This document shows positions 13,833-19,279 of a DNA stretch of 64,000 bases, piece after piece. The stretch lies in the NCBI GenBank assembly GCA_005888735.1, contig VBBN01000029.1, positions 14,564-78,563 of the forward strand, in the 5' to 3' direction. The notes under the pieces are model-generated. The model was not told where the DNA came from. It ran no database searches and saw only the letters and a list, made by a program, of their open reading frames with translations. Made by a program: the position numbers and the translations under genes. Each line of letters starts with the position of its first letter. Positions within the stretch are counted from its first letter, which is position 1. Source of the stretch: Candidatus Bathyarchaeota archaeon (GTDB taxonomy: Archaea; Thermoproteota; Bathyarchaeia; 40CM-2-53-6).

Positions 13833-13976
13833 TGCAGTGTCGCGCCGTAGCCTCGGATGACAGTTTTTTGTGGCGCGCGCTACCTATTTGCTTTTATTGT
13901 TTGCCAACGCCTTCCCCTCAAAAGGGGATAAGCATAAAACTGTCCTGGGGCTATCCAAGGACTGCTGAAGATAGAA

Positions 13977-14162
13977 ATGGGAAAAGTAATGATCTCTCTC
14001 TCCGATGAGGCAGAAAGCCTCGTCAGACGCGAAGTGGACAAGGTCTTCTTTGGCAGAACAGGCGGAGTCAGCATCTTCTTCGAAGGCCTGGTCAGAAAAT
14101 ACTTCAACGGCGGCTTCAAGAAACCAGCCGATGCGAAACACTCGAAGAAAAGCCCCACGTGA
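13977..14162 (+). CDS. hypothetical small protein (possible RHH-like)
   Basis: 61 aa. VMISLSDEAESLVRREV resembles an RHH beta-strand plus helix. Support is weak. Confidence 0.25.
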   Translation: MGKVMISLSDEAESLVRREVDKVFFGRTGGVSIFFEGLVRKYFNGGFKKPADAKHSKKSPT

Positions 14163-14642
14163 AGTTGAAGGTCCCTCTCACAAGTCGCAAGTAAAGCTCG
14201 AGGGCAGCCGATATCCAACGGGTCTGTGGGCTAGCGGGCTCAGAAAGCTTCCCTCGAGCCGTCAAGACAGGAACTAGCCAGACTTTCTAACAAGACGAAT
14301 CGTTGCCATTGGGACAATCAGTTAGACCACTGAAACCCGTCCACAGCGCATCAGGTACGCAAACACTACAATACGCGAGTGGAAGAATTCTCATCATTGC
14401 CTGGCCGTCACCCATTCTGTCCGTTCTAGTCCTACTATCGTTGGACACGACACTTTGTGTCTAAGCATTGACTACGTCAATATCCAGAGATAGATGCTGT
14501 GGCCATGCATCGAGAAACTAGTTGAAATCCTCAACTTGCTTCGAAACAGTCTTTTTGCGAAGCGGGTCTAAGCTAGGGCTGACTACGTGGGCGTCAGCAT
14601 GATTCTCGCGAGGCTAAATACGCGGACCGAGGTTGCAAAGTC

Positions 14643-15101
14643 GTGTCTCCTGGCTGGAATGTGAAGCCACCGAAGGACGATAACGAGTATTTTGAGCGCA
14701 TGACAAAGTCAGTGTTCAGCGCGGGTCTCAACTGGAGGGTCGTTGACAAGAAATGGCCTGATCTCCAGAAAGCCTTCTCCGGCTTCTCGCTTAACAAAGT
14801 GGCGAAGCTATCCGAGAAAAATGTCAAGGCTTTGATGAACGATGAGGGAATCGTGCGGAACGAGAAGAAGATTCGAGCAACAGTGCACAACGCTAACGAA
14901 TTTCTGAAACTTCAGAAGGACCCAGGCTCGTTTCGCGAATACCTCGAATCATTCAAGAAGGATGAAGACGGTCTTCTCGCTGATCTACAGGCAAAATTCA
15001 AGCACCTGGGTCAATCCACAAGCCGGACCTTCCTCTGGTCGGTGGGCTACCAGCTTACGCCCAATAAGGAAGAGAAGAAATGGATGGCGTCCCACAAGTA
15101 A
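14643..15101 (+). CDS. tag: DNA-3-methyladenine glycosylase I (Tag)-like
   Basis: 152 aa. FERMTKSVFSAGLNWRVVDKKWPDLQKAF...GIVRNEKKIRATVHNA matches the Tag family core. GTG start. Confidence 0.75.
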   Translation: MSPGWNVKPPKDDNEYFERMTKSVFSAGLNWRVVDKKWPDLQKAFSGFSLNKVAKLSEKNVKALMNDEGIVRNEKKIRATVHNANEFLKLQKDPGSFREYLESFKKDEDGLLADLQAKFKHLGQSTSRTFLWSVGYQLTPNKEEKKWMASHK

Positions 15102-15180
15102 AGACTCCGGAAGAATCGCGCAAACTTCTCCCTGAATGATTTTATCCCCGGCCATCAGAGGCAGTTCTACCCGCCGCCAT

Positions 15181-15238
15181 GGGGCGGTGGTCTAGCATGG
15201 TCTAAGATAGCTGGCAGGCAACTAGTGGTTCGAGCACA
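15181..15238 (+). pseudogene. decayed tRNA-Pro-like copy (intact acceptor 5' strand and D-arm, degenerate 3' part)
   Basis: GGGGCGG-TG-GTCT-AGCATGGTCTA-AGAT-A forms a canonical acceptor 5' strand and D-arm. The rest (GCTGGCAGGCAACTAGTGGTTCGAGCAC) aligns with gaps to the anticodon and T arms of the tRNA at 16152, but no CCGCCCC acceptor 3' strand is present. Confidence 0.5.
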
Positions 15239-15389
15239 TACAGAGTTAGCTGTTGCAGTAGGCTAACGCCAACAGTTGAATGCTTTATTTCACAGTTACG
15301 TGACGCCGTGATTTCTTGTTTTCTCCAAAACAACACTTTCGTCAATCACTATTAGCTATGTAGCCCCAAGCAGAGGCTGTAGTCACGTC

Positions 15390-16121
15390 TTGAATTTTGA
15401 ACCCTCTGAAGACCTAAGCTTCGTAATTGGATCTTTCTTGGGTGATGGCAGCTTTGTCGAAGACTCGGATTACCATCACCATGTAAAATTGGCTGTTCGA
15501 GACCGCGATTTTGCGGAAGCCTTCAATCTGGCGGTCGGTCATATACTTGGTCGGAAAACAAACAAGATCATAGTAACACACGATTTGGGAAAAGTGTACT
15601 ATGAGTCCAAGTACTCCTCGCGATCCTTGGGATTATTCCTCAGTTCTTCGCTAGGGGAGCTTAGGCCTTTTGCGGATGCTTATCCGGCGGAGTTCTTGCG
15701 TGGCATATTCTCCGCGGATGGCTGCGCGGGCCTTTACGTTGATCATGGTTATCTGAGGCTTCAGATCGTACTTGGCAATTCAGATCCAGAACTGCTGGGA
15801 TTGGTGAAGTCCTTACTTCAATCACATTTCCAGCTACATTCCAATACGTACCTTCGGAAGAGAAGAGGAGCTACATGGAAGAATGGCAGCAAGACCGTCG
15901 TCCTAAGGAAAGACGCGTATGCTCTTCAGATTCAAAGGGTCCATGATGTGCGAGCGTTCGTCGAAAAGATTGGTTTCGTAATCGCTAGAAAACAACACGT
16001 TGCTGAGCAAGCGATCCTTTTGAACCGAACTATAGGCTCTTCACGTGCTGCAGTTGAATGGAGGAAACACTGTTCTCAGAAGAAAGGGGGTCGCTGGCAT
16101 AATTTCGGACCATCTGAATGA
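15390..16121 (+). CDS. double-motif LAGLIDADG homing endonuclease (free-standing)
   Basis: 243 aa with two LAGLIDADG motifs about 95 aa apart (FVIGSFLGDGSF and FLRGIFSADGCAG). It is not in frame with any host protein. TTG start, TGA stop. Confidence 0.85.
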   Translation: MNFEPSEDLSFVIGSFLGDGSFVEDSDYHHHVKLAVRDRDFAEAFNLAVGHILGRKTNKIIVTHDLGKVYYESKYSSRSLGLFLSSSLGELRPFADAYPAEFLRGIFSADGCAGLYVDHGYLRLQIVLGNSDPELLGLVKSLLQSHFQLHSNTYLRKRRGATWKNGSKTVVLRKDAYALQIQRVHDVRAFVEKIGFVIARKQHVAEQAILLNRTIGSSRAAVEWRKHCSQKKGGRWHNFGPSE

Positions 16122-16128
16122 TTTATTT
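16114..16128 (+). promoter_or_regulatory. TATA-like promoter element for tRNA-Pro
   Basis: CTGAATGATTTATTT ends about 24 nt upstream of tRNA position 1. The 11-mer CTGAATGATTT recurs at 15132-15142 upstream of the decayed tRNA copy. Confidence 0.4.
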
Positions 16129-16151
16129 CTCCTTGATTACTCTAGGTCTCG

Positions 16152-16271
16152 GGGGCGGTGGTCCAGCCTGCCGCGAGGCAGGGACAACTTGGTCAAAGGG
16201 CAACAAAACCCGGCTCGGATACTGGTCTCGGGCACCAGTGATCGTGGGTTCAAATCCCACCCGCCCCACCA
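16152..16271 (+). tRNA. tRNA-Pro (anticodon CGG) with about 40 nt of extra sequence in the D-arm region; CCA encoded
   Basis: Acceptor is GGGGCGG/CCGCCCC. Anticodon arm is CTGGT-CTCGGGC-ACCAG, with the anticodon at 16229-16231 and G37. Variable loop is TGATC. T arm is GTGGG-TTCAAAT-CCCAC, then A73 and CCA. The D stem GTCC pairs with either GGAT (16217-16220) or GGGC (16198-16201), leaving one 42-nt insertion or two of about 20 nt. Confidence 0.75.
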
Positions 16272-16303
16272 GCGCTTACCCCTGTTCTGGGCAGGATTCT
16301 TGC

Positions 16304-16310
16304 TTTTTTT
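16304..16310 (+). terminator. oligo-T terminator after tRNA-Pro
   Basis: A run of seven T lies 33 nt downstream of the tRNA 3' end. This is the usual archaeal termination signal. Confidence 0.4.
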
Positions 16311-16829
16311 GGGCAATGGGGCTGGATTAATGCTGCTCTGGTTTTGCTTTCACGTTCGGTTTCCTGTATCTGTTTAACGCTCACGAATCGTGGTTGTGTC
16401 TTTCGTGGGTTCGAACCGTGGGCCGAGTACCCGTTACGCAGTATCGTGTTGTTGCTGTTTTGAGTGATGGTAAGGTTCTGAGTTCTCGTGAGGTTGGGGT
16501 GTTGACGGGTCTTCCGCGGTTTGCTTTGTGGGAGGGTCTGCGGCTTGGTTAAGTCGTCATTGATATGCCAAAATTCGTGTTAATCATCGAATTTTGGGCC
16601 CGAGTTGTCCAGTAAGCTTGCTGGCGTGTATCTTGCTCGCGAAATCGGTCATGACCATTGGGAACCTTGGGGGCTCCACCGTAACAATGTTCTCTGGGAA
16701 ACTCAGTGGCGAATGAGATTCTGTGTCAAAGTCTAGAAGCATTTGTGAATTCAATTCTGAAAACCATTAGTTATTTTGACACGAATGCAAGTTTCTGCCA
16801 GCCTGGATTGTGGAGCTCAAGGATTGCCC

Positions 16830-16847
16830 ATCTCACACGCCCCACCA
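16830..16847 (+). repeat. direct repeat of the tRNA-Pro 3' end (att-like)
   Basis: ATCTCACACGCCCCACCA matches ATCCCACCCGCCCCACCA (16254-16271) at 16 of 18 positions. A further T-arm fragment TCGTGGGTTCGAACC lies at 16403-16417. Confidence 0.4.
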
Positions 16848-18049: not shown

Positions 18050-19279
18050 TTGCCTTCAAACGAACTTACACCCCCGGGACCCGTTTTGACGAGCACCCTT
18101 ATCCCTCGAACCGCAGACTACGAGGTCAAACTGACTGCCGAACATGAGACGCTCAGGAACACTATTCGAGACTTTGCCGAGAAAAAAATCCGGCCAATAG
18201 CTGCCCAGATTGACCATAACAACAAGATTCCCCCGGACCTAATTACTCAGATAGCGAAACTAGGTCTATCCGCCATCACCTACAAGGAAGAGTACGGAGG
18301 CCTAAACGCAGACCTCCTATCTATGGTAATTGCTCTCGAAGAGCTGGCGCGAGTTTCAGCAGCTTGTTCCACGGTTTTTGTGGCGAGTCACTTGGTCTCC
18401 GAACCCATTAATGAATGGGGGAATGAGGAGCAGAAGAAACGCTACCTCGTCCCAATGGTAGCCGGCGACAAGATAGGAGCTCACGCGATGACCGAACCTG
18501 GAGCAGGCTCAGACGTTGCAGGGATCAAATCTACAGCCAAGTTGCACGGGACCCATTGGGAAATCACCGGGCGGAAAATGTTCATCACCAATGGAGAAAT
18601 CGCCGACTACTACCTCGTCTTCGCCCGGACCAGCCCCGCGCCGAGCAAGGCCGAGAGACACAAGGGGCTGAGCGCATTCATCGTTGAACGCGGAACCGAG
18701 GGCTTCCAGGTCGGAAGCAAAATCGAAACAACCGGACTCCGCGGCTCGCAACCCTCCGAGCTAATACTCGACCGAGTCCGTGTCCCAAAGGACAACCTTC
18801 TCGGCAAAGAGGGAGATGGATTCTACATCGGAGTCAAAACCTACGATCGTGGCCGAATAGACGTGTCAGCCCAAGGTGTCGGAATCTCCCAGGCCGCCTA
18901 TGAAGCAGCCGTCAGCTACGCCCAGACACGCACAAGCTTCGACTCCCCGCTCATAGAATTTCAGCAGGTCCAGTACAAGTTGGCGGAGATGGCAATCGGG
19001 CTCCACACCGCCAGGCTTCTCACTTACTGGGCCGCTTCGCTGAAGGACCAGGGCAAGGACTTTGTCAAAGCAGCCTCCATCGCCAAAGTCACAGCGACAG
19101 AAACCGCCGAGAAACTAGCCCTACAGGCCATGATGATTCACGGAGGGTACGGAGTTGCAACAGAATACCCCGTGGAACGCTTCCTCCGCGATTCACAGAT
19201 CATCAAAACATACGAAGGTACGAACGACATTCAACGGCTGACTATAGCCAAACAACTGTTGAGAGAATTGAAAAGATAG
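18050..19279 (+). CDS. acyl-CoA dehydrogenase
   Basis: 409 aa with AMTEPGAGSD and YEGTNDIQRL motifs. A GGTTTAAAGG TATA-like box at about 18034-18043 suggests the real start may be the in-frame TTG at 18086. Confidence 0.9.
   Translation: MPSNELTPPGPVLTSTLIPRTADYEVKLTAEHETLRNTIRDFAEKKIRPIAAQIDHNNKIPPDLITQIAKLGLSAITYKEEYGGLNADLLSMVIALEELARVSAACSTVFVASHLVSEPINEWGNEEQKKRYLVPMVAGDKIGAHAMTEPGAGSDVAGIKSTAKLHGTHWEITGRKMFITNGEIADYYLVFARTSPAPSKAERHKGLSAFIVERGTEGFQVGSKIETTGLRGSQPSELILDRVRVPKDNLLGKEGDGFYIGVKTYDRGRIDVSAQGVGISQAAYEAAVSYAQTRTSFDSPLIEFQQVQYKLAEMAIGLHTARLLTYWAASLKDQGKDFVKAASIAKVTATETAEKLALQAMMIHGGYGVATEYPVERFLRDSQIIKTYEGTNDIQRLTIAKQLLRELKR

Follow-up and report, generated by a model that had tools for sequence, protein, structure and literature searches.

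A free-standing LAGLIDADG gene cassette at the tRNA-Pro(CGG) gene of soil Bathyarchaeia and its probable route of invasion

The present analysis concerns a 64,000-nucleotide (nt) stretch of DNA (hereafter the window; contig VBBN01000029.1 of the Candidatus Bathyarchaeota assembly GCA_005888735.1), in which a free-standing homing-endonuclease gene of the LAGLIDADG type is placed between a 5′ fragment and a complete copy of the tRNA-Pro(CGG) gene, all on the forward strand. We propose, with a probability of roughly 0.7, that a cassette carrying this gene invaded the resident tRNA-Pro(CGG) gene of soil Bathyarchaeia between tRNA positions 27 and 28, exploiting the 3′ part of the tRNA as homology. 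The cassette (15252-16271) consists of a promoter-like motif (P1), a leader, the enzyme gene, a second such motif (P2) and the tRNA with its introns, and it bears the signature of horizontal transfer: its nucleotide identity to three comparison loci (L004, L006 and L008) is 89-93%, against 72-74% for the host flanks, a contrast also evident in synonymous divergence (dS). Here and below, L-numbers denote comparison loci. Homologs of the enzyme (n=58) derive from Bathyarchaeota and soil 'Crenarchaeota' bins; the loci retrieved for them numbered two from Bathyarchaeota genomes and 46 from metagenomes, plus three additional contigs.

Every element that a first-pass annotation of this DNA had listed is found in place. 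A second, independent NCBI assembly (GCA_001920655.1, MNKG01000083.1) is 99.3% identical to window positions 13890-16140, the upstream tRNA fragment included, and stops just short of the second tRNA-Pro copy. As the independent assembly matches the arrangement in the window, the locus is real rather than an assembly artefact. Evidently the repeat arrangement breaks assemblies, with the NCBI contig terminating at the repeat, and loci of such architecture also escape standard tRNA finders.

Two copies of tRNA-Pro(CGG) and their promoter-like motifs

The downstream copy, annotated earlier as an intact tRNA-Pro(CGG) at 16152-16271, is indeed complete with an encoded CCA, and carries two 21-nt bulge-helix-bulge introns in the D-arm that separate exons at 16152-16166, 16188-16196 and 16218-16271. 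Because of these introns, the gene escapes ARAGORN in its plain mode and also Rfam at gathering threshold, which gives no match anywhere in the window; a permissive Rfam search recovers the T arm and acceptor stem at E=2e-9. Splicing out both introns in silico yields 75 nt that ARAGORN recognizes as tRNA-Pro(cgg), the best-scoring combination among all candidate introns. Intron 1 (16167-16187) follows position 15 and reads GTCC[AG|C]CTGCC-GCGA-GGCAG GGAC[AA|C], with a central helix of 4 bp and an inner helix of 5 bp. Intron 2 (16197-16217), of a kind denoted type A, resides at ~22/23, 5 nt 5′ of the 27/28 junction, and reads GGTC[AA|A]GGG-CAACAAAA-CCC GGCT[CG|G], with central and inner helices of 4 and 3 bp, respectively; the outer helix comprises 1 bp in each. 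For the placement of introns, single-deletion enumeration scored by ARAGORN proved too permissive and was replaced by motif scans and comparison between loci.

Across 18 alleles, 92% of the cells of intron 1 are paired, as compared to at most 51% in slid controls, with a score reached by none of 500 shuffles and four pairs changed on both sides. The 3′ strand of the central helix of intron 2 varies as well (GGCT, GACC, GACT, GGTC), with pairing kept. By motif, covariation and a canonical cloverleaf product, both are thus predicted to be archaeal introns of the relaxed bulge-helix-bulge kind, at non-canonical positions. The tRNA-Pro exons are invariant across the related loci and the introns vary: intron 1 occurs in several covarying versions after position 15, and intron 2 as type A (16-21 nt at ~22/23), as type B (30-31 nt at 23/24, splicing to a canonical tRNA-Pro in L002, L027 and L033) or in other kinds. 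L019 has intron 1 only, and L003 and L037 hold a single intron in the T-loop and no other. Intron sequence tracks the type of enzyme rather than the host. In L036, the downstream tRNA-Pro diverges in the T-loop after GGGTTCAA (..GGGTTCAACGCAAAGACGGC..), which may reflect a further intron or an insertion.

The upstream copy opens at 15181 with the identical 12-mer GGGGCGGTGGTC, found twice in the 64 kb when one mismatch is allowed, compared to 0.32 occurrences expected. Its identical start and uninterrupted D-arm, as first described, hold up, but the supposedly decayed anticodon and T-arm region is instead a 31-nt intron followed by four further tRNA positions. The fragment (15181-15241) hence comprises positions 1-23 (15181-15206), an intron relic, and positions 24-27, ATAC (15238-15241), ending after C27; the sequence that follows from 15242 on is not tRNA-like, and a T-loop lookalike, GGTTCGAGCAC, belongs to the 3′ part of the intron. 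The relic (15207-15237) is of type B, with splice sites TCTA[AG|A] .. GAGC[AC|A] and a partly degraded inner helix, and, over 48 nt, matches the functional tRNA of L027 around intron 2 with 85% identity. Positions 1-27 of the tRNA are directly repeated at both borders of the insert, at 15181-15241 and within 16152-16222.

The two copies represent different alleles, that of the fragment being devoid of intron 1 and equipped with the 31-nt intron of the other type. The fragment is 94% identical over 34 nt to the functional gene of L052, which is the closest host relative found (a small upstream open reading frame (ORF) 94% and flanks 81-86% identical) and has a tRNA-Pro without an enzyme gene. 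Unlike the functional copy of the window, L052 and the fragment have in common a ~48-nt promoter spacing, the D-loop AGCATGGTCTA and the lack of intron 1. On the basis of this agreement, the fragment is best read as what remains of the resident gene, and the functional 5′ part as an arrival with the cassette.

Three copies of a promoter-like motif accompany these elements. The 11-mer CTGAATGATTT noted in the first-pass annotation occurs exactly twice, at 15132 and 16114 (0.04 expected; 0 of 100 shuffles reached two), and so this repeat, like the 12-mer, survives a significance test. It belongs to a longer motif, TTGAATG[AC][TC]TTAT[CT]T, located 37-48 nt upstream of tRNA-Pro in most loci and also upstream of fragments. 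P0 (15132-15147, CTGAATGATTTTATCC) precedes the fragment, and the same motif and ~48-nt spacing recur at L052. P1 (15276-15290, TTGAATGCTTTATTT) is a third copy, ~100 nt ahead of the enzyme gene; at L053, a locus without enzyme gene, its counterpart in the alignment is the only promoter motif of the tRNA. P2 (16114-16129, CTGAATGATTTATTTC) is cassette-borne and overlaps the stop codon of the enzyme gene, whose TGA (16119-16121) lies, as annotated, inside the downstream 11-mer; in most enzyme-linked loci the motif is found 37-41 nt upstream of the tRNA. We infer that P0, P1 and P2 function as promoters, with P1 driving expression of the enzyme gene.

The fragment is connected to the conserved cassette by 24 nt of filler (15242-15265) with no clean match at any other locus; similarity to the cassette begins at 15252 for L004 and at 15266 for L006 and L008. 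The G+C content of the cassette, 0.445-0.49, is slightly below that of the flanks, and composition is uninformative.

Alternatively, the fragment could be a live 5′ exon, with a transcript from P0 spliced over a giant bulge-helix-bulge intron of ~1 kb that houses the enzyme gene, or joined as in a split tRNA. In intron mode ARAGORN indeed links 15181 to 16271 as one 'tRNA' with a 990-nt intron, and archaeal rRNA introns of the same splicing type house LAGLIDADG genes. The ARAGORN product is however a forced 'tRNA-Cys', in which the true anticodon arm is taken as variable arm, and a bulge-helix-bulge scan of 15176-15250 against 16100-16262 returns motifs at chance level only, none of them giving a tRNA. 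Moreover, the fragment holds a small intron with both splice sites and a degrading helix, and it ends at position 27; the downstream gene is complete and has a promoter motif to itself; and many loci keep the enzyme gene without a fragment. We therefore give this explanation hardly any credence. Together with Rfam, the ARAGORN and bulge-helix-bulge scans proposed in the first-pass annotation recover the intron-bearing downstream tRNA and no spanning motif. Its suggestion of a giant-intron relic was likewise rejected, as was a split or permuted tRNA, since no motif joins the fragment to the downstream exons, orthologs lacking the enzyme gene are contiguous and the downstream gene is complete. 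A group I or group II intron or other known RNA around the enzyme gene was also considered, and Rfam returned nothing relevant for 15000-16500 at E<=10.

The LAGLIDADG gene, its linkage to tRNA-Pro and its movement between hosts

The enzyme gene (15390-16121) is intact, has a TTG start and encodes 243 residues with the two LAGLIDADG motifs that had been reported, ..FLGDGS.. and ..FSADGC.., and matches the Pfam family LAGLIDADG_3 (PF14528) at E=3.9e-16. It lies between P1 and P2 and outside the tRNA; with no spanning bulge-helix-bulge motif, no group I or II intron in Rfam and no host protein frame, it does not have the setting of an intron- or intein-encoded enzyme. A comparison with I-DmoI-type enzymes, as suggested earlier, was rewarding at the profile level, with a match to I-DmoI among solved structures at E=3e-5; a single-sequence search of the same structures gave no match. 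The AlphaFold2 model (predicted local distance difference test (pLDDT) 90.7, predicted template-modelling score (pTM) 0.88) displays the secondary-structure order expected for two alpha-beta-beta-alpha-beta-beta-alpha domains, and an extra C-terminal three-helix region (residues 184-229) without counterpart in I-DmoI. Foldseek relates the model to I-DmoI with a probability of 1.00 and a target-normalised TM-score of 0.66-0.72, with WhiA as the top match. WhiA is not known to carry the catalytic acidic residues. In the protein of the window, D19 and D110 align to D21 and E117 of I-DmoI and are conserved throughout the family, a finding that favors an active nuclease over a binder of the WhiA kind.

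The gene is tightly associated with one tRNA. Wherever protein identity is 51% or higher and the locus extends sufficiently (L001-L037), tRNA-Pro(CGG) starts 34-86 nt 3′ of the enzyme gene, the variant copy of L019 having been identified by eye. Throughout about 40 related Bathyarchaeia loci, the LAGLIDADG gene is the only ORF between fragment and tRNA, in an insert of only ~1 kb. The genomic context of homologs, one of the checks named in the first-pass annotation, consequently agrees with a tRNA association: the close ones are free-standing, always at tRNA-Pro and not in rRNA introns or inteins, and no close homolog is placed at an unrelated locus. L038 holds a piece of an enzyme gene (308-658; residues 67-183, 58% identity) within unrelated sequence, possibly a chimeric assembly, and was set aside.

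Orthologous loci without the enzyme gene exist as well, in line with the presence/absence polymorphism that had been anticipated. A small conserved ORF (window 13977-14162), present upstream of the locus in most relatives, served as anchor, and in L053, L054 and L055-L062 this anchor is followed by the promoter motif and then by a contiguous tRNA-Pro, with no fragment. The homologs of the anchor ORF comprise 53-61 residues (MGKVMISLSDEAE..GRTGG.SIFFE..), belong to no Pfam family and mark the upstream side across soil Bathyarchaeia.

We then compared cassette (15252/15266-16271) and host divergence, using the small-ORF region and the acyl-CoA dehydrogenase gene (window 18085-19279) as host markers. 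Across the loci compared, identity of the host flanks to the window is uniform at about 70-77%, and that of the cassette ranges widely: identity is 93% for L006 and L008, 89% for L004 and L007, 73% for L001 and L005, and 64-66% for L026 and L027, and in L003, L020 and L037 the enzyme gene is undetectable at the nucleotide level, the tRNA exons alone matching in L020 and L037. Between the window and L004, synonymous sites of the acyl-CoA dehydrogenase gene are saturated (proportion of synonymous differences, pS, 0.84), as opposed to a dS of 0.34 for the enzyme gene; against L006 the latter is 0.135. Conversely, hosts 81-94% identical at the anchor (L006, L004, L005, L013, L027 and L002) carry three enzyme types with only 64-73% identity, and a separate set of introns goes with each type. 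One and the same recombinant occurs in L017 and L018, which originate from two separate samples: its enzyme gene is of L006 type for the initial ~250 nt and of L027 type from there on, through the tRNA and its introns.

Most enzyme genes in the related loci are intact and under purifying selection (ratio of non-synonymous to synonymous divergence, dN/dS, 0.13-0.44), and eight are frameshifted or truncated (L007, L015, L029, L033, L034, L035, L036 and L037). The interrupted frames break after 37-116 codons with the DNA still alignable, and represent either decaying copies or sequencing frameshifts.

Judged from these comparisons, the cassette moves horizontally between divergent hosts. Pure vertical descent does not fit, because cassette and host divergence are incongruent and recombinant and decayed copies occur. 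The pattern carries the marks expected of a homing-endonuclease life cycle, in which invasion, fixation, decay, loss and re-invasion would follow each other. A contrasting explanation is an old, vertically inherited local duplication with an immobile, domesticated LAGLIDADG protein, for instance a WhiA-like regulator or a factor for expression or processing of tRNA-Pro. The synteny of the locus in many Bathyarchaeia, WhiA as top structural match, the purifying selection and the promoter motifs common to gene and tRNA are all compatible with such a role. Yet the divergence of cassette and host is strongly incongruent in both directions, close relatives carry gene-less alleles, eight copies are interrupted and the catalytic acidic residues, not known from WhiA, have been conserved; we deem domestication very unlikely.

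Fragment ends and a proposed route of invasion

Recognisable 5′ fragments are located 60-150 nt upstream of the enzyme gene at many loci. In at least four cassette classes (the window; L033/L035/L036/L041; L020/L023/L025; and L002/L005/L011/L013/L014/L032) they break off at tRNA positions 25-27, with ..GATAC or ..GAT(C)C as the final letters, and the sequence to the right of the junction is unrelated. L004, L006 and L017 have no fragment, the host flank continuing directly into P1, and local alignments in search of upstream fragments were not above shuffles for L003, L037, L004, L006 and L027. In L005, upstream sequence resembling a decayed 3′ part fell short of significance and was dismissed. 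L011 harbors a second 5′ fragment (positions 1-34), 167-204 nt upstream of the start of the enzyme gene and beyond the proximal fragment (z=12.3 versus shuffles). This distal fragment stems from a different tRNA-Pro allele, with the GGGGCCG acceptor seen in L003, and suggests an older event, with successive replacements nested at one locus and a different break point.

The clearly preserved fragments of L033/35/36/41 and L020/23/25 are without intron 2, and the functional copies linked to them have one, 3-5 nt from the junction; fragments of the L002/L005 class are too decayed for scoring of intron 2. Among alleles without the enzyme gene, an intron is present at the intron-2 site in all four types. 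Around the junction (marked by a bar), the tRNA-Pro sequence free of intron 2 reads ..GGTCTAAGATAC|TGGTCTCGGGCACC.., and the resident allele of the window as reconstructed, with its type-B intron, ..GAGCACATAC|TGGTC..

The cassette (~15252-16271), made up of P1, the endonuclease gene, P2 and tRNA-Pro positions 1-27 with the two small introns, sits between positions 27 and 28, such that its 5′ part and the resident positions 28-76 form the working gene, with P0 and the resident positions 1-27 stranded upstream as a dead fragment (15132-15241). In the mechanism that we favor, the enzyme would cut a cassette-free tRNA-Pro gene near 27/28, upon which the right-hand end would invade a cassette-bearing donor by means of the invariant 3′ part of the tRNA, and leftward synthesis would run through the incoming 5′ part and on through P2, the enzyme gene and P1. 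With a homologous left flank, as between close relatives, the whole 5′ region would be co-converted and no fragment remain (L004/L006 type). In a host too divergent for this, the left side would be joined illegitimately and the old 1-27 piece survive (the window, L033 and L020 types); the 24-nt filler of the window would mark this left joint. Intron 2, located 3-5 nt left of the junction, probably splits the recognition site in DNA while being spliced from RNA, which would render cassette alleles immune, an idea derived from the two fragment classes without intron 2 and their linked copies with it. Two of the three readings put forward in the first-pass annotation, a gene-conversion cassette and a mobile unit with its own replacement tRNA, are thereby retained in modified form, as it would be the promoter and positions 1-27 with introns, fused to the resident 3′ part, and not a whole tRNA that is supplied; the third, the giant-intron relic, is dropped.

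Several observations weigh against this proposal. Only the fragment ends point to the position of the putative cut, and free-standing endonucleases are able to cut far from their own genes. In principle, the fragments might also stem from few events and have been kept similar by gene conversion. The window fragment already has a type-B intron 2, and so the invaded allele was not intron-free; simple immunity through the intron would therefore require type-specific recognition. L019 has the enzyme gene and no intron 2, its anticodon stem being changed instead, and L003 and L037 have the T-loop intron alone with no significant upstream fragment. A type-specific arms race could, speculatively, reconcile these exceptions. 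Lastly, the locus is syntenic across hosts, so that its distribution is in part vertical, and the most widely used host marker is only 140 nt long.

Precedents, distant relatives and neighboring sequence

The arrangement was at first held to be without a known counterpart. Precedents do exist, the closest being an insertion in a tRNA-Thr gene of Caldiarchaeum and hybrids formed by mobile ORFs in fungal mitochondria, the latter representing the nearest mechanistic analogue. In Caldiarchaeum subterraneum, tRNA-Thr(GGU) shows a 1-27 fragment and an insertion of 1,868 bp, and a single population contains both insert-bearing and insert-free alleles (Sugahara et al. 2012, PMC3293823). The insertion spans from the fragment end to position 27 of the new copy, and an 813-bp ORF lies immediately upstream, on the same strand, of the complete tRNA, which has an extra intron at 24/25 (PMC3293823). 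A support-vector-machine (SVM) classifier designated this ORF a putative recombinase, the event was ascribed to integration of the pNOB8 type, and no homing endonuclease was recognised (PMC3293823). The 1-27 fragment, an ORF-bearing insert and a complete tRNA with an added intron are thus common to both systems, which differ in isoacceptor (Thr in Caldiarchaeum, Pro in the window), phylum, insert length (1,868 bp against ~1 kb), the LAGLIDADG nature of the window ORF and its transfer between divergent hosts; the Caldiarchaeum ORF ('b') was compared by its published description.

In Allomyces macrogynus (atp6) and Glomus (atp6, atp9, cox2 and nad3), a mobile ORF of the LAGLIDADG or GIY-YIG kind carries a foreign gene end (PMC3630166). 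The foreign end functionally replaces the native one, whose relic resembles the gene of close relatives more than the inserted copy does (PMC3630166). Analogously, the window fragment matches the closest relative, L052, and the functional 5′ part agrees with L006 and L008, both of them distant hosts. The fungal cases however concern organellar protein-coding genes and an in-frame 3′ (C-terminal) end, as opposed to an archaeal chromosomal tRNA, of which the 5′ end and promoter are replaced with small introns brought along.

Classical archaeal LAGLIDADG genes reside within rRNA introns or inteins. I-DmoI is alike in fold, as a double-motif monomer, as the closest solved structure and in the aligned catalytic residues, but it is encoded inside the intron that it mobilises; the window gene is outside the tRNA, the introns are 21-nt passengers, and identity is ~18-20%. 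The free-standing Seg and Mob endonucleases of phage T4 adjoin their target, cut the allele without the gene and spread via co-conversion of flanking markers. This intronless homing shares with the window a free-standing endonuclease gene beside the target. SegB differs in being a GIY-YIG enzyme of a phage genome, with no duplication of a gene part, leftover fragment or introns. It is described as acting in a tRNA gene region of T4 (PMC13096335).

Integration of the SSV and pNOB8 kind also targets tRNA genes, reconstitutes the gene and leaves a partial direct repeat at the other border; it employs a tyrosine recombinase and attachment sites and usually duplicates the 3′ part, in contrast to the present locus, with no recombinase and no conserved left attachment site. 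A trans-acting site-specific recombinase of this kind could nevertheless have integrated an element here, with the 1-27 repeats as attachment-site repeats and the LAGLIDADG gene as passenger or last survivor of a larger, deleted element. The insert is flanked by direct repeats of a tRNA part as with an integrase, the same model was proposed for the near-identical Caldiarchaeum architecture, and a separate integrating element uses the tRNA-Pro 3′ end in L055-L059 and probably also in the window. On the other hand, the sole ORF with a family match between fragment and tRNA is LAGLIDADG_3, likewise in related loci, in an insert of ~1 kb, and no recombinase was seen in the flanks. The left junction furthermore differs between classes with no conserved attachment sequence, several loci are without a fragment, and no relative of the enzyme was found on the viral contigs of IMG/VR. 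We regard a recombinase as an unlikely agent, and homing by the enzyme itself as the better explanation.

Beyond Bathyarchaeia, a profile search detects relatives with 30-38% identity in further archaea, among them Thermococcus and Nitrososphaerales. Five distant relatives had their context looked up (L064, L065, L066, L068 and L070), and all five lie within ~120 nt of a tRNA gene, three of these tRNAs having introns; five contexts without a random-gene control are a lead, not a result. The relative in T. pacificus has a tRNA-Met 120 nt upstream, and in a second Thermococcus-like genome a tRNA-Met is convergent and abutting. Intron-containing tRNAs follow 47-48 nt downstream in L065 and L066, and L068 has a convergent intron-containing tRNA(CAT). 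No tRNA fragments were seen near the three loci checked (L064, L065 and L066). For L039 and L040, distant members from the metagenome scan, ARAGORN and Rfam at gathering threshold gave no tRNA match, both searches being of the kind that miss intron-containing tRNAs. A literature search found no paper linking free-standing archaeal LAGLIDADG genes (Caldiarchaeum, Bathyarchaeia, Thermococcus) to tRNA genes.

Introns at odd positions and the fragmentation and splitting of archaeal tRNA genes have been debated for some two decades, with protection against integrating elements and 'intron transposition' among the ideas. To our knowledge, no enzyme has so far been named for the gain of archaeal tRNA introns or for fragmentation, and the locus offers a concrete, testable candidate for the origin of interrupted and fragmented tRNA genes. 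Tentatively, because all five distant relatives adjoin tRNAs and Caldiarchaeum combines a 1-27 fragment with an intron at 24/25, free-standing archaeal LAGLIDADG_3 enzymes might form a broad class that homes into tRNA genes, installs non-canonical introns as immunity and sheds 5′ fragments, perhaps as the main engine of multi-intron, fragmented and eventually split tRNA genes, a generalization we hold to be possible though somewhat doubtful. If cleavage and intron immunity hold true for the window enzyme, it would represent the first archaeal homing system that targets a tRNA gene from outside the gene and provide a mechanism for the spread of introns unable to move alone, and the tRNA-Thr case of Caldiarchaeum would merit re-examination.

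Two features of the neighboring sequence complete the description. A gene for a Tag-type 3-methyladenine glycosylase (14643-15101) lies between the anchor ORF and the tRNA in the window and in L063, and a different gene occupies this place in L052. On the other side, the ~570-bp segment 3′ of the tRNA (16272-16847) matches, over ~57 nt at its start, a ~2.3-kb insert of L055-L059 at the left end of that insert, and it closes with the tRNA 3′ end repeated imperfectly (16832-16847, CTCACACGCCCCACCA). The segment appears to be what is left of a second element, unrelated to the cassette, that integrated at the 3′ end of the tRNA.

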